Below are positions 662-62,752 of a DNA stretch of 64,000 nucleotides, piece after piece. The notes beneath the pieces were generated by a model. That model saw only the letters and a program-made list of their open reading frames with translations. It made no database searches and was not told the DNA's origin. The translations under genes and the position numbers were made by a program. The DNA comes from Shigella phage phi25-307. The stretch lies in the sequence record MG589383, one strand, 5' to 3'. Each line of letters opens with the position of its first letter. The first letter of the stretch is position 1.

Positions 662-2749
662 CTATCCTTGGACAAATTTAAACGGAACTGATTCTAAATC
701 CATTAAAGATGCTAACAATTTCAATCCTTTAGGAGCACTAGTTTTTTCTACAAATGAGGAGAACGATATCGGCTCATCTGATTCGATTTCACCCGTCATA
801 GCAACCACCTCACCTGTTTCCATGAGAACATCACCGTCGTAAATGACAGCTTCGTCCAACTGGTCCGAGGACATGACTTCAGCTTGAATAAATTTAAGGT
901 TGGATTCTAAACCTGCACCAGTGTCAGATGACGCATCTGTAATTTTATTTATCTGCAAGAGAATGCCTCTAGGCAAAATAATTTCTTGCTCATTAGGGTG
1001 ATTACTCAACTGTCCAGGATAAATCACGTTAACTTTATGGGCGCCATCAATAGCCCATCCAACGTTAACACGGATTTGGTCTGGTGCATGCATAGCTGTT
1101 CTTACTTGACTAGGAGAAATAGTAACACCTTCGTCATTATTGTCAATGTTAAGCTCTTTGCGAACTTCTTCAGGAGCAAGTCCAAGGGCAACGTTCTCTT
1201 TAAACCCACCGAAAATAATAGGAGCTAGTGAAGTGGAAACATAGTTTCTGAAGTAGAATACCTTATTTTTAACCATTGCTTCGTAAATAGGCATTCTGAT
1301 AGACTGAGCTCTATATAACGTTAGTCCTTCAGGTAAACGGTCTCCATTTAAAAACGCTGAATCAAGACCATCAATAGCGCGTTTAACTTCATCTTCATCT
1401 GCAACATCGTAAAAATCTGGTTTATAACGACCTAACAGCATATTATTGATATCGGTATACGCAGAAGAGGCATATTCACGAATAGCTCGTTTTTCAGCAA
1501 CAGAGTATTGATTAGGGACCCGATTCATTGTTATATTAAAGGTGCCTCTAGCCGATTCTCGTGCATAAGTATACATCACATTAGACAAGAACGCTGATTT
1601 ACGTTGTTTCCAAGTTTTTTCAGATACTTCAGCTAAAACGTCGTCAGCCAGTTGGAAATTATCACGTCTAAAATCTTCAAACCATTCGTCTTTAATAGAG
1701 TCTGCAATTTCATTTGCAGCTTCAACAAAAGCAGTTAATGCTTTAACAGATGTTGTTTTTTCAGTTTTAATTTTCTTAGCAAACTTTTCTAAAGTTGGCT
1801 TAATAACACTACCATAAGAAACTTCATCAGCAAATCTAAAGGATTCATCAATACGATTATAAATCTTATTTTCGATATCAGCAACTAAAGTGCCTTTTGC
1901 TGTGGACGATGCTTGGGCTAGTACGATTTCATATGCTTCAGGAAGTAATTCGGCTGTAGCTGGGCCACTAACTTCTTTAGCAGAATTTTCGTATTTCTGG
2001 AATAACTCACCTTCTTGTCGGTCAGCTTCTAAAGATTGACTTGCTGCAATAGCACGACGAGAAATTTTAGTACGAGCAATAACAGGCTTATCTTTACGTT
2101 TTTCTTCTACAGCAGCAATAGAACCAGCGATAGCCGTTTCTTTGGTGACCTTTTCGCCAGTCTTTTTACTCACATAAACTTCGCCAACATCAGAATCTAC
2201 TTTCGTGTACAACTCTGTGTTAATGTTAGGGATGCCTTTAATATCTTCAATGTTGGCATTTTTGCGAACCATCATCACATAGGTGTGTTTACCTGTGAAT
2301 TGATACATTGCCGACAATACTTTAAAACGACCACCGGTTTTAGTAGAAACTAAACGAGCAAGAAGAGTTTGAAGCTGCTGTCCGCGTCCTTTCAATTTCT
2401 TGGTAGGGAATCGGAATAGAACTGCATCCATACGAAGAGCTTTAACCTGTTCATATACTGTATTGAAAATGGTGTTGATTGCATCAATAGGAGCAGGACC
2501 AAGGCCATTTTTCAATTCAGCGAGATTGCCCTTTTCAGATAGACTCATAATAACAACATGAGCGTATTTGTCGCCAAGTTTAACTTGTTTTACAGCATCA
2601 CCTTCGGAAAGGTAAGAGAATAAGCGAACTACGATGTTTGTATCGATATCACCAATTTTCCAGACTTGTGGAACTTTAGCTTTAGGGTTCAAATTGACGA
2701 CAGGAAGACTGCCTTCAGATTCAAACACTTCATTTAATTGTTCAGACAT
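662..2749 (-). CDS. alt: Alt-like ADP-ribosyltransferase (head-packaged), 695 aa
   Basis: C-terminal ART motifs in order: R (LYRAQSIR), STS (YVSTSLAP), E-x-E (NEQEIILPRG); size close to T4 Alt (about 682 aa); position between gene 54 and ligase as in T4. Confidence 0.8.
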   Translation of the reverse strand: MSEQLNEVFESEGSLPVVNLNPKAKVPQVWKIGDIDTNIVVRLFSYLSEGDAVKQVKLGDKYAHVVIMSLSEKGNLAELKNGLGPAPIDAINTIFNTVYEQVKALRMDAVLFRFPTKKLKGRGQQLQTLLARLVSTKTGGRFKVLSAMYQFTGKHTYVMMVRKNANIEDIKGIPNINTELYTKVDSDVGEVYVSKKTGEKVTKETAIAGSIAAVEEKRKDKPVIARTKISRRAIAASQSLEADRQEGELFQKYENSAKEVSGPATAELLPEAYEIVLAQASSTAKGTLVADIENKIYNRIDESFRFADEVSYGSVIKPTLEKFAKKIKTEKTTSVKALTAFVEAANEIADSIKDEWFEDFRRDNFQLADDVLAEVSEKTWKQRKSAFLSNVMYTYARESARGTFNITMNRVPNQYSVAEKRAIREYASSAYTDINNMLLGRYKPDFYDVADEDEVKRAIDGLDSAFLNGDRLPEGLTLYRAQSIRMPIYEAMVKNKVFYFRNYVSTSLAPIIFGGFKENVALGLAPEEVRKELNIDNNDEGVTISPSQVRTAMHAPDQIRVNVGWAIDGAHKVNVIYPGQLSNHPNEQEIILPRGILLQINKITDASSDTGAGLESNLKFIQAEVMSSDQLDEAVIYDGDVLMETGEVVAMTGEIESDEPISFSSFVEKTSAPKGLKLLASLMDLESVPFKFVQG

Positions 2750-2784
2750 AGTGTTTTCCTTTTAGTAATAATTTATATTTATGC

Positions 2785-2805
2785 CAAAAAGAGCCCGAAG
2801 GCTCT
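2785..2805 (-). terminator. Intrinsic terminator (UUCG-loop hairpin plus U-run)
   Basis: AGAGCC-CGAA-GGCTCT hairpin at 2790-2805, followed on the minus strand by TTTTT; abuts the stop of ORF 2805..2993. Confidence 0.6.
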
Positions 2806-2993
2806 TAATCCACAATCGGGAGCAAAGTACGATAAACTTCAAAATTAGGGCCTTTTTCGTACCCATTAACGTTATCTACGAAAACCCGATACGAATTTTC
2901 ATTAGGAAAATCTAATATAATCTGAGAGCAAGAGGTGGAAACATCTCCACCATCCTTCTTAGCTACAATAACTGTTTCTAAATAAGCTTTCAT
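2805..2993 (-). CDS. Hypothetical protein, 62 aa
   Basis: Start trimmed to the ATG overlapping the ligase stop (TAATG at 2991-2995); ends at the terminator hairpin. Confidence 0.45.
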   Translation of the reverse strand: MKAYLETVIVAKKDGGDVSTSCSQIILDFPNENSYRVFVDNVNGYEKGPNFEVYRTLLPIVD

Positions 2994-4486
2994 TATAAAC
3001 CTGTCTGGGACCACGGTCCAAATACGTCTTCAAACGAATCCGCTTCTGTTTTATCAAAACGGAACCCTTTAATAATTGGAAGGAAAATACCTACAGTACC
3101 TTCACGGCCTTTAGAATGAACCCAACCATTACATTCACAATCAGCGATACGTCCAATTAATTTACCTTCACGAGCTTCGGTCATTAATCGTTCACGGTCT
3201 AAATCATGACGCTCGTCTAAAGGAATAAGAACCTTTACACCGTCAACTGTTTTATGAGTTGTATCTTTAAACCCTGAACCACAATCGGTTGTAATACGAC
3301 GACAACGTGATACGAGTTCGACACCACCTAATTTGTTAGGGTCTTTAGAGTGTTCATAGTATCCTACAACTTCTAAAGCGATATCAATAACTTCTTTAAA
3401 TTTAATTAGGTTCTTAGAGCGTTTGTTTTCCCAATATGAATCACGGTTTTTAAGGATAATACCTTCAAGACCTTGGTCAACATATTTTTTATAAACTACT
3501 TTAGCTTCGTCAAGATTACGAACTAACTGATTTTCAATTGGTTCAATTCGCTTAAAGCCTTCAGCCATATTTTCAAGAGCAGCAAAACGAACATCGTATT
3601 TCTGACCTTTAATTTTGCCGTCAGAATAGACTTCATCTAAAGGAACATAGTCCCAGGCTTGAAGAACCATACCTTCCGCTTCTTTAGGAGAAATAGTCCC
3701 TTGAAGAGATTTATTTGCTAAACCATTTGAAGTGCTACGGTCTGCAACTTGTACTTCTTCGGATTCTTCATTATCACCAAATAAGAACGACAGGTCATTT
3801 CCTGAGCTCACAGCCTTTTTAATATCGAATGAATGATAAACTAATTCACCGTCGATTAAAACCCCATTAGGGTGTCTTTCACGAGCTTCTTTAGTCATTT
3901 CCATTAGTTCATCCGCTAATAGAGTAAGACCATGGTATTCGTTACCAGCACGAGAAAAGAATTGAACACCATCATCGCGAACTTCAGCGAAACAACGAGC
4001 ACCATCTGCTTTTAATTGGGCAAATGCGGGCCATTTAATATTTTTAGTAATCAATTTCTCATCATATGCAGATGCTAACATCTGTGGTTGCAATTGAATA
4101 AGTCCAGGCCACACCTTATTCGCGATAGACACTGAAGCACCTACTTCAAGGTCGCGCATCATTACACGACGAAGGACTTCTACATCATCAGGTTTACCAT
4201 CAGCGATATAACCCATGAGCTCTTTAATTGCAGCATTACCGGTGAGTTTACGAGTGGCTAATGTGAACTCAATAAAATCCAACATGTCATCTAATTCAAG
4301 AAGACCATATGCTTGAGACCTTTCACCCGGTCCTGGCCATTTCTTAATATAATACTGGATACCACGTGCATATGTTAAACGATACACACGTTCAAGTAAT
4401 TTGTTGTCCTTATTTTTCTTAAGGATTTCTTGTTTTGTTTTAGTAGAACCGATCGCAGCTATTTGGTTTAAAATATCTAAAATCAT
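2993..4486 (-). CDS. 30: ATP-dependent DNA ligase, 497 aa
   Basis: Adenylation motif KADGAR; N-terminal region closely resembles T4 gp30 as remembered; size and position between alt and rIII match T4. Confidence 0.92.
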   Translation of the reverse strand: MILDILNQIAAIGSTKTKQEILKKNKDNKLLERVYRLTYARGIQYYIKKWPGPGERSQAYGLLELDDMLDFIEFTLATRKLTGNAAIKELMGYIADGKPDDVEVLRRVMMRDLEVGASVSIANKVWPGLIQLQPQMLASAYDEKLITKNIKWPAFAQLKADGARCFAEVRDDGVQFFSRAGNEYHGLTLLADELMEMTKEARERHPNGVLIDGELVYHSFDIKKAVSSGNDLSFLFGDNEESEEVQVADRSTSNGLANKSLQGTISPKEAEGMVLQAWDYVPLDEVYSDGKIKGQKYDVRFAALENMAEGFKRIEPIENQLVRNLDEAKVVYKKYVDQGLEGIILKNRDSYWENKRSKNLIKFKEVIDIALEVVGYYEHSKDPNKLGGVELVSRCRRITTDCGSGFKDTTHKTVDGVKVLIPLDERHDLDRERLMTEAREGKLIGRIADCECNGWVHSKGREGTVGIFLPIIKGFRFDKTEADSFEDVFGPWSQTGL

Positions 4487-4761: not shown

Positions 4762-5586
4762 TTAACAATTTGTAGACCAAGTCCATTTGGACGAATCTAA
4801 AGGAAAGTTTTGAATCGTCCACCATGGCTGCATATCGGTTGGTCCTGGGGTTCGCCAGGTATATGGAGTACGTGTTGTCGAGGGGCCACCAATTTGATTA
4901 GGCCATGCACCTGGACTTGTTGTACCAGATTCTTTAAGCAAATCCGCCAATCGTTTTAAAAGGTCTTCACGATCTGAATCTGAATTATGCTCGGGTGGAA
5001 CCAAACGAGATTCAATATCATCCCACGTGTGTACACGTTGTGCAGTACGAGGAATGGCATCACGTTCACCACGAGCCAACCAATAAATCGGTACATTAAG
5101 AATTTCTGCTGCATGGTCACAATGATGAGCTAAATCGTCAACGTAACAAATCACGTTATATTTTGTTTTAGCTAGTTCGAATAATTGTTCCTTTGAAGAA
5201 TCATGACCACACATCATTACTTCAGAGAAAGCGCCTGGGAACAAAGCATTCAAATTAAATTGTCTATTCAATCGAGCATCAATTGAATCACCTAGCGCCG
5301 TCACGGCTACAAAATTATAGTCTTCTTTTAGTTTATTGATAACTCGAAGAGCATCCGAATAAGGCGCTAAGTAACGAATAAAATCAGAGCTATTATATTT
5401 TTCTATTAATTGTTTACCAAGGTTATCGTCGGTATTGAACAGTTTACCAGGAGAAATAAATTTTTCGTCCTGAATCATTTTTAAAATATGTTCTAATGGA
5501 AGATTATATTTTTGGGCAAAATAAGGAAGTCCAGATTGCCAGCTTAAACATACACCATCAATATCAGTCAAAATAGTAGGTTTCAT
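4762..5586 (-). CDS. HAD-superfamily phosphatase-like protein with a low-complexity P/T/W-rich C-terminal tail, 274 aa (30.2 position)
   Basis: HAD motif I DIDGV near the N-terminus, later VTALG and YVDDL motifs; last ~70 aa are Pro/Thr/Trp-rich; ATGA overlap with the upstream NADAR gene. Confidence 0.5.
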   Translation of the reverse strand: MKPTILTDIDGVCLSWQSGLPYFAQKYNLPLEHILKMIQDEKFISPGKLFNTDDNLGKQLIEKYNSSDFIRYLAPYSDALRVINKLKEDYNFVAVTALGDSIDARLNRQFNLNALFPGAFSEVMMCGHDSSKEQLFELAKTKYNVICYVDDLAHHCDHAAEILNVPIYWLARGERDAIPRTAQRVHTWDDIESRLVPPEHNSDSDREDLLKRLADLLKESGTTSPGAWPNQIGGPSTTRTPYTWRTPGPTDMQPWWTIQNFPLDSSKWTWSTNC

Positions 5587-6493: not shown

Positions 6494-7108
6494 CTACTTA
6501 ACGAAATTAATTTCTACTGGATGAACAACAGGTTGAGCAGTGATATATTGAGTAATTGCTTTCATGACTAGAGCTTCAGAACCAGGATTTTTCTCAACGA
6601 ATTCACGTGCTTGGTTATGAGCTTCAAGTTCACTTAGTAAACCACTTCGTTGGCATCCACGGTCTTGAGTACCCTGTTCAGATAAAAAGACGACGATGTA
6701 TTTTTCATCGTCATACGGTTTAGACGGTTGAGCAAATGTTCCTTTACTTCCAAAAGGAGAGTTATGACGCCACATCACGCCGTGAGGAGTTTCAACCTTC
6801 ATATATTCGTGCGGGCCATTTTTCTTAGTTTCTTGATGTGGAACTTCGTGGACCTTAGGGTTAGGACATTCAATAAAATGCTCATCTAAATCGGTCGAGA
6901 ATATTAAAGTAAAACAATTACTGAATTTACCAACACCTGCCTGATAAATTTTACCTTCAGAAGTTCTAATTTCACAAACCGAGCCGGCATCAGTAACTTC
7001 TAAAACTTCAAAAGGCTCGATAAGGTCATATGAGAACATGTTTTTAAGGCGTGGAGTAATATCCCCATTTTTAAAATTCATTTTATAAAAAGTATTAACT
7101 TTAAACAT
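6494..7108 (-). CDS. Hypothetical protein, 204 aa
   Basis: Long ORF preceded by GAGGAAA and the intercistronic hairpin at 7121-7136. Confidence 0.6.
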   Translation of the reverse strand: MFKVNTFYKMNFKNGDITPRLKNMFSYDLIEPFEVLEVTDAGSVCEIRTSEGKIYQAGVGKFSNCFTLIFSTDLDEHFIECPNPKVHEVPHQETKKNGPHEYMKVETPHGVMWRHNSPFGSKGTFAQPSKPYDDEKYIVVFLSEQGTQDRGCQRSGLLSELEAHNQAREFVEKNPGSEALVMKAITQYITAQPVVHPVEINFVK

Positions 7109-7509: not shown

Positions 7510-7538
7510 TTATTCTCCAGATGTTTAAGTTGTTTGTT

Positions 7539-7578
7539 GGTACAGGTCTATAATAACAAAACCTGTACCAAAGTAAAC
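7539..7578 (-). promoter_or_regulatory. Early promoter embedded in a perfect 9-bp inverted repeat (PeSL-like cassette)
   Basis: Minus strand GTTTACTTTGGTACAGGTTTTGTTATTATAGACCTGTACC; arms GGTACAGGT / ACCTGTACC flank the -10 TATTAT. Confidence 0.55.
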
Positions 7579-11552: not shown

Positions 11553-11582
11553 ATAGTATCACAACTCCACCATGTTGTAAAC
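11553..11582 (-). promoter_or_regulatory. Early promoter (GTTTAC, 18 nt, TACTAT) in an imperfect inverted repeat
   Basis: Minus strand GTTTACAACATGGTGGAGTTGTGATACTATAACTCTACC. Confidence 0.5.
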
Positions 11583-13650: not shown

Positions 13651-13688
13651 TTAGATTTCCTCAATTATCCATAGGAGCATTATACTCT

Positions 13689-13719
13689 GCTCCTGAGAGT
13701 TTGTAAACTATTTTACTAA
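13689..13719 (-). promoter_or_regulatory. Early promoter (GTTTACA, 18 nt, TATAAT) with AGGAGC/GCTCCT inverted repeat
   Basis: Minus strand GTTTACAAACTCTCAGGAGCAGAGTATAATGCTCCTATGG. Confidence 0.55.
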
Positions 13720-22497: not shown

Positions 22498-22520
22498 TTT
22501 ATTCTCCTTCACTTTTATTT

Positions 22521-22559
22521 GATAGGACTACTATAACATAGCCCTATCTTGTTATAAAC
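22521..22559 (-). promoter_or_regulatory. PeSL-like early promoter cassette (family B)
   Basis: Minus strand GTTTATAACAAGATAGGGCTATGTTATAGTAGTCCTATC; shares ATAGTAGTCCTA(T/C) with cassettes at 42443, 42964 and 62711. Confidence 0.55.
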
Positions 22560-35700: not shown

Positions 35701-36024
35701 TTCTATGATGGATACAATAGTGCTGGTCCAAATGGCAACGCTAAAATCACTGGAACCGTGAGTGGTGCTACTGCATCGTCGAATATGGCCAAAACTTCTT
35801 CAGACGGTGCCCACACCCATAGTTGGTCTGGTACTACTAGCACCACAGGTAACCATGCCCACACCGTAGGTATTGGCGCCCATACTCACACCGTAGGTAT
35901 TGGCGCTCACACCCATTCGGTTGCAATTGGTTCACATGGTCATACAATAACTGTAAATGCCACAGGAAATACAGAAAACACAGTTAAAAACGTTGCTTTT
36001 AACTATATCGTTCGTTTAGCATAA
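32767..36024 (+). CDS. 37: Long tail fibre distal subunit / receptor-binding protein gp37, 1085 aa
   Basis: Large Gly/Ser/Thr-rich fibre protein ending in a His-box tip (GNHNHT, GAHRHA, GAHTHS, GNHAHT, GAHTHT, GAHTHS, GSHGHT) and the T4-like C-terminus NYIVRLA. Confidence 0.9.
35515..35592 (+). repeat. In-frame tandem 30-nt coding repeat in the gp37 tip ([11 protein letters not shown])
   Basis: GGTACTAAAACCACTTCTAGTTTTGATTAC / GGTAGCAAAACGACTTCAAGCTTTGATTAT, then a partial third copy. Confidence 0.7.
35866..35919 (+). repeat. In-frame tandem 27-nt coding repeat in the gp37 tip ([10 protein letters not shown], His-box)
   Basis: GTAGGTATTGGCGCCCATACTCACACC / GTAGGTATTGGCGCTCACACCCATTCG. Confidence 0.7.
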
Positions 36025-42143: not shown

Positions 42144-42188
42144 GCTAATTTCCTCAATTGATTAATGATTTTATTATCCAATGAGAGC

Positions 42189-42218
42189 ATTATACTCTGC
42201 TCTCAAGAGTTTGTACAA
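42189..42218 (-). promoter_or_regulatory. Early promoter for ndd (TTGTACA, 18 nt, TATAAT) with GAGAGCA/TGCTCTC inverted repeat
   Basis: Minus strand TTGTACAAACTCTTGAGAGCAGAGTATAATGCTCTCA. Confidence 0.55.
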
Positions 42219-42220
42219 TT

Positions 42221-42421: not shown

Positions 42422-42442
42422 TTTGTGTTCCTCATGTTTCAG

Positions 42443-42479
42443 TAGGACTACTATACCATAATCCTACCTTGATGTAAAC
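42443..42479 (-). promoter_or_regulatory. PeSL-like early promoter cassette (family B)
   Basis: Minus strand GTTTACATCAAGGTAGGATTATGGTATAGTAGTCCTACTG. Confidence 0.55.
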
Positions 42480-42935: not shown

Positions 42936-42963
42936 GATGTTATCCTCTTTTAGATAGGACTAC

Positions 42964-43001
42964 TATATCATAGTCCTACTTAGTTGTAAACACTTTTATG
43001 A
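42964..43001 (-). promoter_or_regulatory. PeSL-like early promoter cassette (family B) with perfect 8-bp inverted repeat
   Basis: Minus strand GTTTACAACTAAGTAGGACTATGATATAGTAGTCCTATC. Confidence 0.55.
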
Positions 43002-43003
43002 AA

Positions 43004-44772: not shown

Positions 44773-46986
44773 TTATTTGGCCGCTTCCACGGCCTTCATG
44801 AATTTAACGATTTGAGCGACCTGTTCTTTGGAAAGAGTACCACGTCGTCCCATGTATTCTGACACAATATGATAATTGGTTTCGAATTCAATAACCATTT
44901 TATCATCATTATCGTAAGCATTATCTTTAAGCTTATCGAAAATTTTAGCACACAATTCTAACTTCTTATTCAGGTCTGTATTAGTAGCACCTGCGAATCG
45001 ATTCCATCCCCAACGATTATTTACTGTTGAGAGTTTTGCAAAGTCTTTACTGATTTCTTTGTTCTTAGAGCTAAAATACTTACTAAGGAAGTTAAGCTCT
45101 TCGTTACGAGTAATATGATTCAAATAAGGCTGTGCTCTACGACTTGGTGATACATACTCATCATAATCCACTTTGTCAATTAGCGTAATATAGTCATTAA
45201 TTGATTTTTCGAACAAGCATTCTACTTCACCAAGTTTACGAACTTTCTTAGCAATCTGTGGACGGACTACAGTGAACTCTTTAATACCTGACAAATCAGC
45301 AATACGAGTCAAGAAACTAGAATCATAGTTCAACCAACCTTTATCTGCGTCAAGACATTCGGCGTTAGAACGATTACGAATTACAACATAACCTTGAATC
45401 TCATCGGCTTTACCGGCCGGAATAAAGAGATCTTCTGATACCCAAACATCGTTTTCATTCTTAAAGAACCGATGAGCACTTGGGGATTTAGGACGAGGCT
45501 GCGATGAACGTTCTTTAACTTCAATCCACGGTTTAACTAATGCAAGAATTTCAGAGGTCTTATAAAATTTAAGGCTATCACCAGCGAAAATAACCTTTAA
45601 TCGTTCTAGAAGTTTCATTGCAACTTCATCTTCCGGATTAACGAATAATACGCTACTACCCCATCCGGAAGGAACCTTATCAACGAGTGTTGATGCATCG
45701 GTGGAAGTCAAAGCATCGTTCAGAGCACGCATCATTGGTACGCGGCCTTTCACATCGTCAATAACAATATCAATATGCTTACGACTAATACCTAGCAGGC
45801 TATTAATTGAAATAGTTGAAGACGAGCTTCCGCTTTCACGAATACGACGAAGTCGTGGATCTGAAACGATATCGTATACAACACCAAGGTTGCACCATTC
45901 AGGTCCCATTTTAAACCGTTTGTACAACTCAGAATAAGTTAGCTGTTCTTTAGAATATTTCAGTGATTCAATATTAGAACCGGCTTTTTCCATGTATTTA
46001 CGAGCAGAGTAACCAAGAGAATCGATTTCACGGAATACATGACGTGGATATTCACAATCAATCCATTTCTTAGAATCTTCAGCAAATAATTTTGCATCGA
46101 TTTCTGCAACACGTTTATGGATATTTGCTACTGTACGTTTATCAAATGACAATGCTTCACGAGACGGGGCTACATCTAGTTCACCCATAGGGAATTTAAT
46201 ATAAGCTGTAGTGCATCGCGTCATCATCCATGTTTGTTCTTTAATAACACTTCCGATTGGATATACAATACCACCATAAACAGCCATGATATTACCACGT
46301 TCACCCCATGGAGCTTCCTTGGCTAAATAAACATCATCGAATTCCGGGAAGTATTTGATATCTTTAACACCACGAACTTCTGCAATATCGCCGAGAGGAC
46401 GCATAACATATGCAATTTCAGATGCGAACTTTTCAAAATCTTCTGGGTTAACCGGTACAACTACTTCTACACCCGTACGGTCATCAGGGCCCATCTTATC
46501 TACAAAGGTTGGCTTAATCTGTGGACCGCTGTCATCTTGATAAATTACATAACCACGAACTTCACCGTTGTGATAAGACGTAAGGTTAAACGTATCGGTA
46601 TACGCTAGTGGAGCTTTAGAGCCGAGTCCGAATCCACCAATGAAATCGTTACTCGATGTTTTAGTTGAAGCAAAATATGAATTATAGATTCCTGGCTCTT
46701 CGTCATTACCTCGAATGGTGAAATCACTCATACCAGGACCAAAGTCTCGAACTACAAAACGTGGGTCTAAACGACCTGGAGCCTGAACAATAAACTTATC
46801 AGTGCAACCATTAAGAATTTGACCATCGATACAGTTTGTGATTAATTCGCGTACACAAGCCAATTCTTTGTTTGTATAAAGGTCATTAGACAAAATCTTA
46901 TAAACTTTGCTATTGCCTTGAATAGTAAATGCTGTGCTCTTATCGCCTGAACCAATAATCGTTTCTTTAGCCGTTTCAATAATCAT
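44773..46986 (-). CDS. rIIA: rIIA protein, 737 aa
   Basis: Size close to T4 rIIA (about 725 aa); N-terminal GHKL-ATPase-like region matching remembered T4 rIIA (ELITN.ID...FGPGMSDF, YNSYF.S.K..SNDFIGGFGLGSK). Confidence 0.95.
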   Translation of the reverse strand: MIIETAKETIIGSGDKSTAFTIQGNSKVYKILSNDLYTNKELACVRELITNCIDGQILNGCTDKFIVQAPGRLDPRFVVRDFGPGMSDFTIRGNDEEPGIYNSYFASTKTSSNDFIGGFGLGSKAPLAYTDTFNLTSYHNGEVRGYVIYQDDSGPQIKPTFVDKMGPDDRTGVEVVVPVNPEDFEKFASEIAYVMRPLGDIAEVRGVKDIKYFPEFDDVYLAKEAPWGERGNIMAVYGGIVYPIGSVIKEQTWMMTRCTTAYIKFPMGELDVAPSREALSFDKRTVANIHKRVAEIDAKLFAEDSKKWIDCEYPRHVFREIDSLGYSARKYMEKAGSNIESLKYSKEQLTYSELYKRFKMGPEWCNLGVVYDIVSDPRLRRIRESGSSSSTISINSLLGISRKHIDIVIDDVKGRVPMMRALNDALTSTDASTLVDKVPSGWGSSVLFVNPEDEVAMKLLERLKVIFAGDSLKFYKTSEILALVKPWIEVKERSSQPRPKSPSAHRFFKNENDVWVSEDLFIPAGKADEIQGYVVIRNRSNAECLDADKGWLNYDSSFLTRIADLSGIKEFTVVRPQIAKKVRKLGEVECLFEKSINDYITLIDKVDYDEYVSPSRRAQPYLNHITRNEELNFLSKYFSSKNKEISKDFAKLSTVNNRWGWNRFAGATNTDLNKKLELCAKIFDKLKDNAYDNDDKMVIEFETNYHIVSEYMGRRGTLSKEQVAQIVKFMKAVEAAK

Positions 46987-46998
46987 ATTTTTCTCTCA

Positions 46999-47199
46999 TC
47001 ACAAGTTACGTTTAAAAATTTCTGCTACTTCAAGAAGTTCTTCTTTAGTAGCTGTATCGGTTTGTATTTTATATCGAATTTCCTTAAAGCGTTCTTTAAA
47101 GGCTTCAGCTGATTCGATATCAAAAAATCTTTGGATAAGCCGGAATTCCCGGAGCACAGCTTTATCAAAAAGTTCCAAGTCCACGTTATATGTTCTCAT
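46999..47199 (-). CDS. Hypothetical protein, 66 aa (rIIA.1 position)
   Basis: ORF directly upstream of rIIA. Confidence 0.5.
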   Translation of the reverse strand: MRTYNVDLELFDKAVLREFRLIQRFFDIESAEAFKERFKEIRYKIQTDTATKEELLEVAEIFKRNL

Positions 47200-47224
47200 A
47201 ATATTCTCTTCAGTAGATTCCTAG

Positions 47225-47275
47225 GGCACTATTACTAAAGACCATATAATCTATCATCTTATGTGTAATAGTGCC
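47225..47275. repeat. 11-bp inverted repeat (GGCACTATTAC / GTAATAGTGCC) around a 29-nt AT-rich loop containing TATAAT
   Basis: Perfect arms at 47225-47235 and 47265-47275. Confidence 0.6.
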
Positions 47276-47291
47276 TCAGGCTATTCAGGAT

Positions 47292-48392
47292 TTACGCTGT
47301 GAAGATTTTATCCCACATCGCAACAACTGCATCTCGGTTATACTTCTTCCATACTGCTTCAGCACGTTTAACTCGAGCTTCGTATGTATCAGTGAATTCT
47401 AATACAGCTTTTGTGTAAAGCGCAACTACTTCTTTCTTAGGAGTAGAGGAATCAATTTCTACACGCACAGTATCTGGGTCGTATTCAAATGTCGCATGAG
47501 GATAATCCTTAAAAACTAACTGGATTACAGGGACACCTTTAGAGATGGCTTCAATAGAACTATTCTCTACCGTACCTGTGTCAGGACATGTATTAATAAG
47601 TGCTTTAGCTGTTTTAAGACGTTCCATGATTTCACTGTGTGGAGCATCAATAATAACAGGATATTTAGCTGGTGGTGCCCATTTGCTTGGACAGTATCCT
47701 ACACCATTTTCGCCTAGTGCTTTAATCGCTTCAAGAGCAACATCAGTACGACGCATTTTAGTGTCATAACGTTGTGCACTAATAATCAGATCAGTCGCCG
47801 GAAGAACTTCAGGTTTCTCATTCAAACAAATAACCGGATAATCTTCGGCTTCAAACAACGGATTTGCTCGCCAATAATCATAATCAATTTTGTCAGTCAG
47901 AGCTGAAGTCATATGGCAATATTTACGTTCAAATTCACGGAAGGCTTTAGTAGGAGCATAACTCTTACCGCCATTCTTATGAATTTGAATAGTCTGGTCC
48001 CAAATTTGAACAATGCCACGAGATACCGGTTCAAATGGTGTTGCCATAAAATTCTTATGAACTTTAGAGAGACCTGCGTCTTTAATTGCCTGAACGGTTA
48101 GTTTAGTCGGTTCCATAGTAACAACAAAATCGTATTCATGGATGCCGGCTAGTTCAACAATCTTACGAGCCATAGTATAACTCATACCTAGACTGAATTT
48201 AGTCAGATGACCAACAGGATGGTGTGTAACTTTCCAGTCACCAAACGTGTCATTATCAAAGCCGATATAATCAATATCAGCACCAATGGACACAAGATAT
48301 TTCAACACATTTAAATGTACTGCTTCAAGGCCACCTTGTACACGGTCAGGATTAAATGGGACTGCACGAGATGGGATAAACATAACTTTCAT
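47292..48392 (-). CDS. GT-B fold glycosyltransferase-like protein (GT4-like motifs), 366 aa
   Basis: N-terminal Rossmann start MKVMFIPS...GGLEAVHLNVLKYLVSIG.DIDYIGF and C-terminal E-x7-E-like segment TGTVENSSIEAISKGVPVIQL resemble retaining GT-B glycosyltransferases; no obvious match to remembered T4 alpha- or beta-glucosyltransferase N-termini. Confidence 0.55.
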   Translation of the reverse strand: MKVMFIPSRAVPFNPDRVQGGLEAVHLNVLKYLVSIGADIDYIGFDNDTFGDWKVTHHPVGHLTKFSLGMSYTMARKIVELAGIHEYDFVVTMEPTKLTVQAIKDAGLSKVHKNFMATPFEPVSRGIVQIWDQTIQIHKNGGKSYAPTKAFREFERKYCHMTSALTDKIDYDYWRANPLFEAEDYPVICLNEKPEVLPATDLIISAQRYDTKMRRTDVALEAIKALGENGVGYCPSKWAPPAKYPVIIDAPHSEIMERLKTAKALINTCPDTGTVENSSIEAISKGVPVIQLVFKDYPHATFEYDPDTVRVEIDSSTPKKEVVALYTKAVLEFTDTYEARVKRAEAVWKKYNRDAVVAMWDKIFTA

Positions 48393-48404
48393 AATTAAGC
48401 CTTA

Positions 48405-48436
48405 TTAAAATTAAAATGAAGCTCCCGAAGGAGCTT
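48405..48436 (-). terminator. Intrinsic terminator overlapping the HNH endonuclease stop codon
   Basis: AAGCUCC-UUCG-GGAGCUU hairpin (48419-48436) followed by CAUUUUAAUUUU on the minus strand. Confidence 0.6.
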
Positions 48437-49232
48437 AGGACATCCAACACATTTTATAACCTTTGCAGGTTCTGTTAGGATTATTTAATGCTTTCAATAT
48501 ATTAGAAGACCCTATATCTAAATACTCCCTTAATTCATAAAGATAGTTAAAATCAATAGTTTCACCTGTTTTTACACTTGTGATTCTTATAGGCCTTCTT
48601 TCATATTTAGATTTATACAACTCTCTAGTCTTAGCTTTAGTTTCTTCTGACCTAGGAGTGTATGGTTTAAATCCTTTTGTTTTAAATGTTTCCATTCTTG
48701 ATTTAGTTATTTTATCCTGGTGTTCTTTTGTTTTTACAGGTGCTTTTCGCCCATTCTCCCAAGATAACTTGTTGGCCTGTATTATTTTATCTATTGCTTC
48801 TTGCGTATGAGTTTTACCATAAAATGGATTTAATTCGCCTATACGTTGTGAAGCAATATGTGACATTAATTCTCTTGTTGCTTTAGTATGTTTTTTACCT
48901 TTAAATGGGTTGCCATTTTTAGCAATCCATTCTTTCATAAATCTAGAGTGCTCTTTAGAGAATTCTTGTTTAAGCCAATCATAATCTCTAGAATTTCTAG
49001 CTCCCATGTAAAAAGCTCTAATAGCCATAAGCATAGAACGGTTCTTATGAATTTTATAAAGCAATAAATGGGCGATAAAATGCTCTCTAGGGGTCATTTT
49101 AACTAGATTTGATTTAGCATTACTCCCACCCATAGATTTAGGCAAAATATGGTGAGTTTCAGTATAATTAGGAATAGTGCTGCGGTTTTTAGCCGCAGCG
49201 ATAAGTTTATCATAAATTTTACGATAATTCAT
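48435..49232 (-). CDS. HNH homing endonuclease (Mob-like), 265 aa
   Basis: HNH motif TETHHILPKSMGGSN...NLVKMTPREHFIAH and repeated NPF(K/Y)GK.HT NUMOD-like motifs; start overlaps the gene 39 stop (TAATG). Confidence 0.8.
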   Translation of the reverse strand: MNYRKIYDKLIAAAKNRSTIPNYTETHHILPKSMGGSNAKSNLVKMTPREHFIAHLLLYKIHKNRSMLMAIRAFYMGARNSRDYDWLKQEFSKEHSRFMKEWIAKNGNPFKGKKHTKATRELMSHIASQRIGELNPFYGKTHTQEAIDKIIQANKLSWENGRKAPVKTKEHQDKITKSRMETFKTKGFKPYTPRSEETKAKTRELYKSKYERRPIRITSVKTGETIDFNYLYELREYLDIGSSNILKALNNPNRTCKGYKMCWMS

Positions 49233-51052
49233 TATCCTAGCATCCAATCTTTACGGAGTTCAGGGTCGTTACCCATGAGCATTTCAAATAGTTCTTTCCA
49301 ATTTTCAGGAAGTTTAACTACGTCGTACACAGGGTTTTGAATCATTTCTTTATATTCATCCCGCTGAAGTGAGCCCAATCCCTTGATGTATCGAATACTA
49401 TGCTTAGGCAGTGTATCTTTGGCTTCTTCATACTCAGCTACAGTATAAAACCATTTTTGAGTTTTGCCAATTTGTGCAATAATTACAGGCGTTTTAACAA
49501 AGCGAATACGTCCTTGTTCAAACAATTCAGGCCAATTACTAAAGAAAGCAAGCAAAGCCGGATAAATACTTCCAAGACCGTCATGATCGGCATCGGTCAT
49601 AATTGCAATATTACGATAGTTCGTATTCTCTGCCTTTTCACCAAGAATAAGACCTGTGATAGCACAGATATCAAAGAGCTCTTTGTTCTTCATCATATCA
49701 GCATATGACATACCCCAGCTATTCATCACCTTACCACGTAATGGGAATCCACCGTGTAGTTCACGGTCACGAACATCAATGAGATAACCAATTGCCGAAT
49801 CACCTTCTGTTAAAAACAATGTCGTATCTGCATCTTTACCACATTGGTTAGCTTTAATATGCTTATGAACCTTAGCTTTAGTTGCCTTTTTAGCTGCTTT
49901 AGTTTCTGCAGCCTTTTCTGCTGCCAATTTACGAGCTAATGCTGCTTCAACAATAGGCATAATCAAAGCTTCATTTTTAAGAAGTGCCTGAGCAATTTTC
50001 TTAGCATCTAATTGGATATGATTACGAATATCACCATACGTTGACGTTAAACGTTCTTTAGTCTGAGAATCAAAACGCATGTTGCTCATGTCTCTAATAA
50101 ACATCAACATTGTGAGGCATTCTTTAACACGAGCTTTAGTGACTTCAATACCCTTATATTTCTTTTTAATACCGGGCAAAAGATGTTCGCAGATATCATC
50201 CATTACACATTCAACATGATGACCACCATTTTTAGTATGGATGTTATTCACATAAGTTAAATGACGGAAGCCATCTGGTGATGTTGTGAATGCTATAGAG
50301 ACTTTATCATTTTCTTGAATGATGTTATCTTCGCCAAATTGTTTAGCAAATCGTTTAAAATTACCATCAACCTTTTTACCATTAAATGTGAACTTGATAT
50401 CAGGATAAACGACTGCCAATGTTTGAAGACGGTCTAAAGTAATATCTAAATAAATTTGAGATAAATTATGCTCTTCAAATGAAGAGAAATCAGGAGTGAA
50501 GATTACTTTAGTGCCTTTACCTTTAGATTTCTTAGAAGACCATGATTTGTTTTCCATTCCGTTTGAACAGTTAACAGTGATTTCATTTTCGCCATCTGAC
50601 GTGATGCCTGTAAACAACGTAGAGAAGATATTAGTTAAACTACTCCCGACGCCGTTCATACCACCAGTCTTGCGTTCAGAGTCATCACCAAAGTTACCAC
50701 CGGCCTTTGGAATAGTCCAGGCCGCTACAGGCCCAGGAATTTGTTCACCTGTTTGGTCGGTAACTAAACCTTGAGGAATACCACGTCCGTTATCTTCCAC
50801 TGAGACTTGATTATTTTTAATTTGCACATCAATTTTATTTGCAAACTTAAATGATGTACGAATAGCTTCATCAACCGAGTTGTCAATAATCTCATCGATT
50901 AATTTAACAAGACCAGGAACATATTCAACTTGTTGATATTTACCAAACAAAAAACGCTCATGGGCTTCTTTAGCCGAAGAACCAATATACATGCCACTGC
51001 GTTTCTTAATATGTTCTACATCTGACAATACCTTAATTTCATTTTTAATCAT
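49232..51052 (-). CDS. 39: DNA topoisomerase II large subunit, single fused ORF equivalent to T4 39 plus 60, 606 aa
   Basis: GyrB-like ATPase N-terminus (HIKKRSGMYIGS, VDEAIR...DNGRGIP) and TOPRIM region in one continuous frame. Confidence 0.92.
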   Translation of the reverse strand: MIKNEIKVLSDVEHIKKRSGMYIGSSAKEAHERFLFGKYQQVEYVPGLVKLIDEIIDNSVDEAIRTSFKFANKIDVQIKNNQVSVEDNGRGIPQGLVTDQTGEQIPGPVAAWTIPKAGGNFGDDSERKTGGMNGVGSSLTNIFSTLFTGITSDGENEITVNCSNGMENKSWSSKKSKGKGTKVIFTPDFSSFEEHNLSQIYLDITLDRLQTLAVVYPDIKFTFNGKKVDGNFKRFAKQFGEDNIIQENDKVSIAFTTSPDGFRHLTYVNNIHTKNGGHHVECVMDDICEHLLPGIKKKYKGIEVTKARVKECLTMLMFIRDMSNMRFDSQTKERLTSTYGDIRNHIQLDAKKIAQALLKNEALIMPIVEAALARKLAAEKAAETKAAKKATKAKVHKHIKANQCGKDADTTLFLTEGDSAIGYLIDVRDRELHGGFPLRGKVMNSWGMSYADMMKNKELFDICAITGLILGEKAENTNYRNIAIMTDADHDGLGSIYPALLAFFSNWPELFEQGRIRFVKTPVIIAQIGKTQKWFYTVAEYEEAKDTLPKHSIRYIKGLGSLQRDEYKEMIQNPVYDVVKLPENWKELFEMLMGNDPELRKDWMLG

Positions 51053-51074
51053 GTTGTCTCCTCGTTATGAAGGT

Positions 51075-51099
51075 ATTCTATCATCCGAAATCTAAAGCA
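51075..51099 (-). promoter_or_regulatory. MotA-dependent middle promoter for gene 39 (TGCTTTA, 12 nt, TAGAAT)
   Basis: Minus strand TTTGCTTTAGATTTCGGATGATAGAAT, just downstream of the UUCG hairpin terminator at 51104-51115. Confidence 0.45.
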
Positions 51100-52391: not shown

Positions 52392-52420
52392 ATAGTAACA
52401 CATCTAGAGGAGAAGTAAAC
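52392..52420 (-). promoter_or_regulatory. PeSL-like early promoter cassette (family A)
   Basis: Minus strand GTTTACTTCTCCTCTAGATGTGTTACTATAGACCTATC. Confidence 0.55.
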
Positions 52421-54061: not shown

Positions 54062-55375
54062 TCAAATAAAATGGACGTCAAACCGGCCACGAGTTGTGCC
54101 GACATACAATAACTGTTTAGCTAATTCTGAATCGGCATAATGGATACACGGTGTATAAACAAAGGCCGTGTCAACAGACATACCCTGGGCCTTATGGAAG
54201 GTTGATACTGGTAGTGCCTTCACCTTAGTGAACATACGTTTAGCATCCCAGAATTCGCTCCATGGAGCTTTACCACCTTTATTCCAAAATTTGTATGTTT
54301 CTGCGGTCTTAGCCAAAAACAAATTGAATTTATAAAGCTCTTCTTCAGAAGAAATAACCTTTATATCTTCGCGGATGTATTCTTCATCATCCCCATATGT
54401 TTCTACTGTAAGATTCCAGTATCGTATCATATATTCGCCCGAAACACCACGTGCTTTAACGAATGTAGACGTTTCTACAGCATCTCTAATACGAACGAAT
54501 TGGCCGTTATTGAAAAGCATTTCGGTAATATTTTTACCATCTAGCTTATATGTCTTAGTAAATGGCTCCTGTAGAACAATGACTTCGTCTTTAATAAATG
54601 GTTTTTCTGTTTCAAGAAGTTTTCGTCGAATAATTGAATTTAACTTGTCCACCGACTTATTTGTGAATGCCATCATTCGATTTTCGAAAAGGTCTTCAGG
54701 AGTTTTAACGACGTTAAAATAGTTCATCATATACGATTTAAGGTCTGTATATCCGTGAACACCATGTCCATCAACTACTTTATCGTAAATCCATTTGCCA
54801 TTACGAATATCAGTAGCAACATCAATAATTGGTGCATTGCTACGTTTAACTTCTGTAAGGTTGCATTGCACGAAGTCTTTGTGAGTGAAGAAAGGACTTA
54901 GATACGCAGTTGATTCGCCTGGGTCTACCGGACGAATCTGGCATCGGTCGCCGATGCCAATTACTGTACACCATTTAGGGATACTAGCTAACATTATTTT
55001 AAACAGAGAACGGTCGCACATTGACGCTTCATCAAATAACAGTACACGGCACAAGGCTAGGTCTGGAACCTTTTTCTGTTCAAACAATACGTTTTCTTCG
55101 TATGTAGTTGGGTTGATTTTAAGAATGCTATGAATAGTCGATGCTTCTTGTCCCGCAAGTTTACTTAGAACCTTTTTAGCGGCATGTGTAGGGGCTGCTA
55201 AAATAATACCTGATTCTCCAGAAGAAATAAGGGCTTCAACGATGAATCTAGTAAGGGTTGTTTTACCTGTACCAGCAGGCCCATTAATAGTTACGTGATG
55301 TTTCTTTTCTTTAATAGCGTTCATAACAACGTTGAAGGCGTTTTTCTGGCCTTCAGTCAAATCATCAAATGTCAT
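54062..55375 (-). CDS. dda: Dda DNA helicase (SF1B), 437 aa
   Basis: Walker A INGPAGTGKTTL, Walker B LLFDEASM; size close to T4 Dda (439 aa). Confidence 0.9.
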   Translation of the reverse strand: MTFDDLTEGQKNAFNVVMNAIKEKKHHVTINGPAGTGKTTLTRFIVEALISSGESGIILAAPTHAAKKVLSKLAGQEASTIHSILKINPTTYEENVLFEQKKVPDLALCRVLLFDEASMCDRSLFKIMLASIPKWCTVIGIGDRCQIRPVDPGESTAYLSPFFTHKDFVQCNLTEVKRSNAPIIDVATDIRNGKWIYDKVVDGHGVHGYTDLKSYMMNYFNVVKTPEDLFENRMMAFTNKSVDKLNSIIRRKLLETEKPFIKDEVIVLQEPFTKTYKLDGKNITEMLFNNGQFVRIRDAVETSTFVKARGVSGEYMIRYWNLTVETYGDDEEYIREDIKVISSEEELYKFNLFLAKTAETYKFWNKGGKAPWSEFWDAKRMFTKVKALPVSTFHKAQGMSVDTAFVYTPCIHYADSELAKQLLYVGTTRGRFDVHFI

Positions 55376-62689: not shown

Positions 62690-62710
62690 TTTAACTCCTT
62701 AGTTGATTTG

Positions 62711-62748
62711 ATAGGACTACTATACTATAGTCCATCTATAATGTAAAC
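62711..62748 (-). promoter_or_regulatory. PeSL-like early promoter cassette (family B)
   Basis: Minus strand GTTTACATTATAGATGGACTATAGTATAGTAGTCCTATC. Confidence 0.55.
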
Positions 62749-62752
62749 AAGT

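Follow-up and report, generated by a model that had tools for sequence, protein, structure and literature searches.

The 92-nt spacer between a glycosyltransferase gene and rIIA.1 in Shigella phage phi25-307 (sequence record MG589383) holds a hairpin that is real, conserved and lineage-specific, and of a fairly ordinary kind. From its predicted fold and its distribution we infer, tentatively, that it is transcribed as a stable intercistronic mRNA hairpin, that it serves in the stability or processing of the message, and that it was acquired together with the glycosyltransferase gene. Judged by its sequence and its relatives, the hairpin is neither a promoter cassette nor a terminator nor a junction of recombination; a processing site is our best guess from the modeled structure. 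In the following, the window denotes the whole stretch of phi25-307 DNA that was analysed (64,000 nt). All large ORFs in the neighbourhood are encoded on the - strand, and the order of transcription is gp39, HNH endonuclease, UUCG terminator, glycosyltransferase, hairpin, rIIA.1 and rIIA. The features are, in this direction:

52392..52419, - strand: nearest upstream early promoter, TTTACT-N16-TACTAT, with the top PWM score in the window (RB69 Pe:6863)
51070..51099, - strand: MotA-type middle-promoter match TGCTTTA-N12-TAGAAT upstream of gp39 (RB69 Pm:5538)
51052..49232, - strand: gp39 topoisomerase subunit, fused, 606 aa
48435..49247, - strand: homing-endonuclease gene (HNH/NUMOD3), inserted between gp39 and the terminator as a separate, variable element
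48419..48436, - strand: intrinsic terminator with canonical UUCG tetraloop, upstream of the glycosyltransferase gene
47292..48392, - strand: glycosyltransferase gene, 366 aa, orthologue of RB69 ORF003c; the hairpin is its 3' UTR
47200..47291, - strand: complete intercistronic spacer, 92 nt, at least 96% identical in 153 Mosigvirus records
47220..47280, - strand: whole hairpin in its sense-transcript form, 61 nt; pair probabilities of at least 0.9 in all contexts tested, z = -4.3
47265..47280, - strand: 5' arm on the transcribed strand, CCUGAGGCACUAUUAC, with its perfect 11-nt core at 47265-47275
47236..47264, - strand: 29-nt 'loop' with predicted inner folding
47245..47250, + strand: TATAAT hexamer on the non-coding strand, a match at the level of chance without a -35 partner
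47220..47235, - strand: 3' arm on the transcribed strand, GUAAUAGUGCCCUAGG, with its perfect 11-nt core at 47225-47235
47206..47211, - strand: Shine-Dalgarno-like GAAGAG of rIIA.1, 8 nt 3' of the hairpin foot and predicted to be mostly unpaired
46999..47199, - strand: rIIA.1, the cistron downstream of the hairpin (Pfam T4_RIIA1, E=4e-30)
46986..44773, - strand: rIIA

On the + strand, the perfect 11-bp arms read GGCACTATTAC (47225-47235) and its exact reverse complement GTAATAGTGCC (47265-47275), separated by 29 nt of 24% G+C that include TATAAT at 47245-47250. Letters and coordinates agree with the first-pass annotation, which had described such arms around an AT-rich loop with TATAAT and had correctly placed the repeat between a glycosyltransferase-like and an rIIA.1-like gene; it lies in the 92-nt gap (47200..47291) from the stop of the glycosyltransferase ORF to the start of the rIIA.1 ORF. 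The arms can be extended to 16 nt (+ strand: CCTAGGGCACTATTAC at 47220-47235, 29 nt, then GTAATAGTGCCTCAGG at 47265-47280), which are 88% complementary in the repeat search (14/16). At the RNA level the 16 arm positions form 15 pairs, including one G.U wobble, and a single A.C mismatch interrupts the stem. The arm sequence has no second copy in the 64-kb window.

The 11-bp arms alone are no more than expected by chance. The window contains two perfect inverted repeats of at least 11 bp with a loop of 3-60 nt, compared to 1.62 +/- 1.62 in dinucleotide shuffles, and 45% of the shuffles hold two or more. The complete predicted fold is unusual, with a minimum free energy (MFE) of -28.6 kcal/mol on the - strand (z = -4.3; none of 200 shuffles is as stable) and -27.8 kcal/mol on the + strand. 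According to the prediction, the 29-nt loop is itself folded into a 5-bp helix (47256-47260 / 47238-47242) and a 3-bp helix (47252-47254 / 47244-47246) that end in an apical GAUUA pentaloop (47247-47251). The hairpin would thus comprise 16 + 5 + 3 pairs, or about 24 stacked base pairs with small internal loops, and in all contexts tested between 111 and 301 nt its pairs are predicted with probabilities of 0.9-1.0. It ranks sixth among the non-overlapping 80-nt windows on either strand of the 64-kb window, and its gap has the most negative energy per nucleotide among 42 intergenic gaps. On the - strand, the 80-nt windows 54911-54990, 35851-35930 and 42791-42870 fold at least as stably (-34.8, -30.7 and -28.7 kcal/mol). 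The window carries no tRNA genes. The Rfam 15 covariance models return no match over the hairpin at E<=10 (46000-49500 searched) and no gathering-level match anywhere in the 64-kb window.

The phi25-307 window belongs to Mosigvirus (RB69/JS09/HX01 group): a 1.2-kb query centred on the spacer retrieves 153 phage records with 90-99.4% identity. A 106-nt hairpin query likewise retrieves only Mosigvirus records from the phage collection, 153 in number and all with at least 96% identity. A search of 5,426 E. coli genomes for the spacer gave no match, the rIIA.1 relatives in IMG/VR come without it, and a flank-anchored pattern search added four metagenome and two viral contigs with known variants only. 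The records found with the 106-nt query have one hairpin place per genome, except for two JK45 records with a tandem duplication. Throughout the 153 Mosigvirus records the hairpin is restricted to genomes with the glycosyltransferase gene at the locus. Thirteen T4-like genomes from other genera have neither spacer nor glycosyltransferase, and in them gp39/60 runs right up to the start of rIIA.1 or overlaps it. The 54-nt spacer between gene 60 and rIIA.1 of T4 is a textbook early promoter (GTTTACT-N17-TATAAT, PWM +12.5), and the Tequatroviruses fPS-90 and F1 keep a T4-type early promoter and have no hairpin. The hairpin is absent both where gp39/60 abuts rIIA.1 and in T4, fPS-90 and F1. The T4 promoter and the hairpin share one genomic slot, directly before the rIIA.1 ribosome-binding site, but the T4 slot carries TTTACT-N17-TATAAT (PWM +12.5) whereas the Mosigvirus spacer has no promoter match. 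Upstream of rIIA.1, homology between Mosigvirus and T4-type sequences extends to about 9 nt from the ATG. The genome comparison therefore suggests that the hairpin came in on the same DNA as the glycosyltransferase gene and replaces the T4 promoter.

The identity of glycosyltransferase homologues drops from 98% to 43% with none between, and those outside the genus are 41-43% identical. The homologues of Acinetobacter phages stand in a different operon and are followed by ordinary UUCG terminators, and the Tegunavirus phiR1-RT has no glycosyltransferase at the locus. The RB69 orthologue, ORF003c, has been proposed to be a hydroxymethylcytosine (hmC) arabinosyltransferase, in a paper on RB69 arabinosylation that does not mention the spacer (PMC6024577). 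The view that the repeat marks the edge of an accessory island holds in the weak sense that the hairpin occurs only with the glycosyltransferase gene. The supposed island itself falls apart into two separate things: by genome comparison, the glycosyltransferase is fixed in the genus and the HNH gene is a separate mobile insert, complete in 26 of 164 matching records and missing at the locus in RB69, SA79RD and HX01.

Within the genus the spacer appears to be constrained. Nine relatives that were not chosen for spacer divergence differ from the window, taken as reference, at 1.3% of spacer positions, 0.4% of first and second codon positions of the flanking genes and 6.6% of their third codon positions, a roughly five-fold difference between spacer and third positions that local mosaicism makes a rough measure. 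The pooled contrast gives a Fisher p of 7e-11 for sequences that are not independent, and ESCO47, the most divergent genome, shows 4/92 changes in the spacer against 59/266 at third positions (p = 3e-5). Not only the stem but also the loop sequence is conserved. There is no covariation signal among 13 distinct variants, which are very similar to one another (mean identity 98%; 424 of 500 shuffles score as high).

In the variant analysis, whose sequences were partly picked for low identity, 5 of 44 Watson-Crick paired positions vary compared to 7 of 17 unpaired or mismatched positions (p = 0.026); without the mismatch positions the contrast is not significant (p = 0.19). Three of the four stem transitions (47226, 47273 and 47252) retain a G.U pair in the - strand RNA, and the fourth, at 47228 in RB69, breaks the - strand RNA pair and leaves a G.U on the + strand only. 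The A.C mismatch has been repaired twice independently, by an AG>GA change in AV115/AV118 that yields a perfect 16-bp stem and by a T to C change in Shf125875. This pattern of variation hints at selection for base pairing within the sense transcript. The AV115/AV118 change (window-equivalent 47223-47224) also opens a 5' extension of rIIA.1 that starts with GTG and is annotated in AV115, and as a double change it resembles templated quasi-palindrome correction.

The hairpin might instead be a functionless leftover, a quasi-palindromic piece of DNA that arrived with the glycosyltransferase gene. Its conservation would then be only apparent, in a genus that is young and recombining, and templated (hairpin-directed) correction would sometimes perfect the repeat, a mechanism reportedly described in Ripley's T4 rII work. 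Arms of this size are expected by chance, covariation is lacking, the element is single-copy and found in a single lineage, and the adjacent AG>GA changes of AV115/AV118 perfect the palindrome as quasi-palindrome correction would. A divergence five-fold below that of adjacent third codon positions, ESCO47 included, and a loop sequence conserved like the stem speak against it, and we consider a leftover rather unlikely.

A promoter is far less probable still. The idea of a promoter stem-loop cassette in the first-pass annotation does not survive: the TATAAT is on the + strand and the local genes are all on the - strand, no -35 element accompanies it, and no PWM score exceeds zero. TATAAT occurs 82 times in the window versus 81.7 expected. 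The T4-group early consensus TTTACW-N16-18-TAYWAT has 16 matches in the window compared to 1.06 expected, 15 of them on the - strand and none at the hairpin. In a PWM built from the window's own 15 consensus early promoters on the - strand, these score +28 to +45 and further promoter-like sites reach down to about +13. The best scores in or around the hairpin are -10.2 (- strand) and -11.6 (+ strand), with no positive score, a level that about 0.5% of random positions attain. Neither a generic sigma70 scan nor the MotA-box pattern gives a match at the hairpin, and the late box TATAAATA occurs six times in the window and not once near 47200-47300. In the published RB69 tables the early promoters begin at 6863, middle promoters are placed at 156 and 5538, and the terminators are those of 3649-3662 and 5535-5546; there is no promoter or terminator entry at 2448-2508, the position of the RB69 hairpin.

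A promoter inside the stem-loop could still be conceived as antisense, using the + strand TATAAT, or as a weak sense promoter, ATTACA-N17-TATGGT. Apart from the presence of TATAAT, it might be argued for by the early promoter of T4 at the equivalent position and by the inverted repeats that often straddle the -10 box in the window's real early promoters. Against this stand a best PWM score of -10.2 compared to +28 to +45 for consensus-matching promoters and +12.5 for the T4 promoter, a + strand that has TAGGGC in the -35 position and TATAAT at chance frequency, the lack of a MotA box and a late box, and the absence from the RB69 promoter tables. A promoter in the stem-loop is thus largely refuted in silico, and we regard it as scarcely credible.

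Inverted repeats across the -10 box are a common trait of the phi25-307 early promoters, in which half of the repeat, in the spacer, pairs with the first transcribed bases. Perfect -10-straddling arms of at least 6 nt are present in 8 of 25 promoters versus 1.2 expected (maximum 5 in 200 shuffles). They are located on the - strand at 7537-7571, 11553-11581, 13679-13707, 22498-22558, 42144-42220, 42422-42478, 42936-43003 and 62690-62752, and one has 11-nt arms (TTGGTACAGGT...ACCTGTACCAA). These repeats can fold in read-through transcripts only.

Another promoter-associated element with which the hairpin might be compared is the PeSL (promoter-early stem-loop) cassette of T4-type phages (Arbiol 2010; Comeau 2014, PMC4122927), which by definition has a stem-loop of terminator type directly before an early promoter and is present in repeated copies (PMC4122927). 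Like a PeSL, the hairpin is an intergenic stem-loop followed by a Shine-Dalgarno sequence and a start codon, and the adjoining gene varies between relatives. However, no TTTACW-N17-TAYWAT promoter follows the stem, which is long, A+U-rich and without a U-tail and is not of the terminator type. The hairpin is also single-copy in the window and therefore offers no repeated homology for cassette shuffling. It is not a PeSL cassette by the published definition.

The MotA-type match at 51070..51099 is the nearest promoter-like site able to drive transcription through the hairpin. As no promoter lies between this middle promoter of gp39 and rIIA.1, read-through should carry transcription across the spacer, within a polycistronic delayed-early/middle mRNA that would run from gp39 through the HNH gene, where present, the glycosyltransferase gene and the hairpin to rIIA.1 and rIIA. 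Likewise, as there is no early promoter before rIIA.1, the expression of rIIA.1 and rIIA should depend on read-through and on middle promoters. Inside rIIA.1, the sequence GCTT-N13-TATAAA (window 47066-47090, - strand), whose counterpart in SA79RD is annotated as a T4-type middle promoter, would provide rIIA with a promoter of its own downstream of the hairpin.

In such a transcript the hairpin might pause or attenuate transcription, as a factor-dependent terminator that lacks a U-tract and reduces read-through into rIIA.1-rIIA. A strong hairpin right behind a stop codon fits this role, as does the middle-promoter-like site that rIIA has inside rIIA.1 according to the annotation of a relative. 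However, no T-run follows the stem on either strand, the terminator scan is blank at the hairpin and TransTerm makes no call there in RB69. The phage's real terminators are short G+C-rich UUCG hairpins with T-tails. The canonical ones (e.g., 48419-48436) resemble the hairpin in being RNA hairpins just behind a stop codon, but have a G+C-rich stem of 6-8 bp, a 4-nt loop and a T-run, whereas the hairpin has an A+U-rich stem of 16+8 bp and no T-run. It is not a Rho-independent terminator, and a pause or attenuation site seems improbable to us.

The hairpin might also control the translation of rIIA.1, if an outer helix masked the Shine-Dalgarno sequence and AUG until the ribosome terminates upstream (translational coupling). 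In this arrangement the hairpin would draw the stop-codon region of the glycosyltransferase gene beside the rIIA.1 ribosome-binding site. The Shine-Dalgarno sequence GAAGAG and then the ATG follow, the ATG 20 nt past the stem. An outer helix over both (CGUAA.UCCU / AG.GA...UUAUG) is indeed predicted by MFE folding and RNAalifold in contexts of 96-111 nt. It is worth only about 2 kcal/mol and is lost in longer contexts: at 161 nt or more the Shine-Dalgarno sequence is unpaired with a probability of 0.5-0.86 and the predicted pairing of the AUG varies with context. Moreover, the main stem stops 8 nt before the Shine-Dalgarno sequence. Masking of the ribosome-binding site is thus, as modeled, context-dependent and weak, and we attach little weight to translational control. 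The hairpins that mask ribosome-binding sites in T4 (e, soc, 49 and I-TevI; PMC3014915) are similarly located upstream of a gene in a read-through transcript and contain an internal late promoter. Here, the Shine-Dalgarno sequence and AUG are outside the helix and mostly unpaired in the prediction, and TATAAATA is missing from the 5' arm and its surroundings. Two candidates for translation in the spacer itself were rejected: small ORFs (15 and 13 codons by eye) lack a Shine-Dalgarno sequence and have mostly non-synonymous substitutions in a hand translation, and read-through of the glycosyltransferase stop codon would meet an in-frame stop 10 codons on.

This leads back to a role of the hairpin in mRNA stability or processing, the account towards which we lean. 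The hairpin pairs with a predicted probability of at least 0.9 in contexts of 111-301 nt (z = -4.3), and it is co-inherited with the glycosyltransferase gene and not found elsewhere. Having entered the Mosigvirus lineage along with this gene, it would sit in the slot of T4's rIIA.1 early promoter. It may block 3'-to-5' exonucleases and so stabilise the glycosyltransferase message, or it may be a double-strand-specific (RNase III-type) processing site that splits the glycosyltransferase message from the rIIA.1-rIIA message, and both options may apply. RNase III-type processing is proposed because the approximately 24 stacked pairs with small internal loops resemble the sites of other phages, whose size range is similar. 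By prediction only, about two turns of interrupted double helix lie between the two cistrons.

Known hairpins of this kind include the T7 R1.1-type RNase III hairpins in phage early mRNAs and, as an intercistronic 3'-stabiliser, the REP hairpin in malE-malF. The phi25-307 hairpin resembles them in its length of about 60 nt, its approximately 24 stacked pairs with small internal loops, its intercistronic position and the lack of a U-tract. It differs in having no sequence similarity and no Rfam match, and in being known from a predicted fold. RNase III is not known as a major player in T4 mRNA decay, nor are T4-type phages known to rely on it; a T4 review makes no mention of RNase III. In the literature we found no transcript mapping of any Mosigvirus.

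A more specific role would be that of a dedicated cis-regulatory RNA carried with the arabinosyltransferase gene, in which the 61-nt element including its conserved 29-nt inner part serves as an operator or as the precursor of a processed small RNA. Either the operator, through a phage or host protein that binds it, or the small RNA would then set the level or timing of ara-hmC modification relative to rIIA.1/rIIA, and the element would functionally replace the T4 early promoter at this slot. We consider this a long shot.

For the RB69-type phages, which form a model group in structural biology and phage therapy, the hairpin is a modest gain, namely a refined transcription map in which an arabinosyltransferase gene and a conserved RNA hairpin stand in place of T4's rIIA.1 early promoter. 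The hairpin is a sensible boundary when the DNA-modification gene is deleted or swapped. It is also a candidate portable mRNA-stabilising or processing element, although it opens no new mechanism.

Finally, the repeat might act at the level of DNA, where it could be bound by a dimeric protein, form a cruciform or hairpin that signals recombination, or be the target of a homing endonuclease at the island border. Its symmetry is equal on both strands and the mobile HNH gene is 1.2 kb away. On the other hand, the half-sites are 40 bp apart, the same repeat is found in genomes with and without the HNH gene, the DNA fold is weak (-10.7 kcal/mol, z = -2.7) and the known rearrangement junctions nearby fall outside the repeat. 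The last two points make a role at the DNA level less likely, and we judge it very improbable. The suggestion that the repeat is a recombination junction fails likewise, as T4-type homology stops short of the hairpin, about 9 nt before the rIIA.1 ATG, and the junctions of the JK45 duplication and of the HNH transfer are both outside it as well.

Shigella phage JK45 carries a perfect 503-bp tandem duplication (JK45 sequence 513-1518; equivalent window 47184-47686) that takes in the hairpin spacer in full, together with 16 nt from the start of rIIA.1 on one side and about 395 nt from the 3' end of the glycosyltransferase gene on the other. It creates a second hairpin and a truncated glycosyltransferase copy, with junctions outside the hairpin, and could be a real recent event or an assembly artefact. 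Two Mosigvirus records, EP32B (465 nt) and LH01 (177 nt and a second ORF), are annotated with a truncated or split arabinosyltransferase orthologue. These may be frameshifts or sequencing errors; if they are real, the modification may be lacking in these phages. The HNH/NUMOD3 cassette (window 48344-49400) is 99.8% identical in the Tequatroviruses fPS-90 (a Yersinia phage; 2508-3564), F1 and FN. In these phages the cassette is accompanied by two further Mosigvirus pieces, the terminator and the initial 48 nt of the glycosyltransferase gene (MKVMFIPSRAVPFNPD), and their fusion with the final 27 nt of the T4-type gp60/39 gene lies at a CTGAC microhomology. The arrangement points to a recent transfer between genera with one illegitimate junction.
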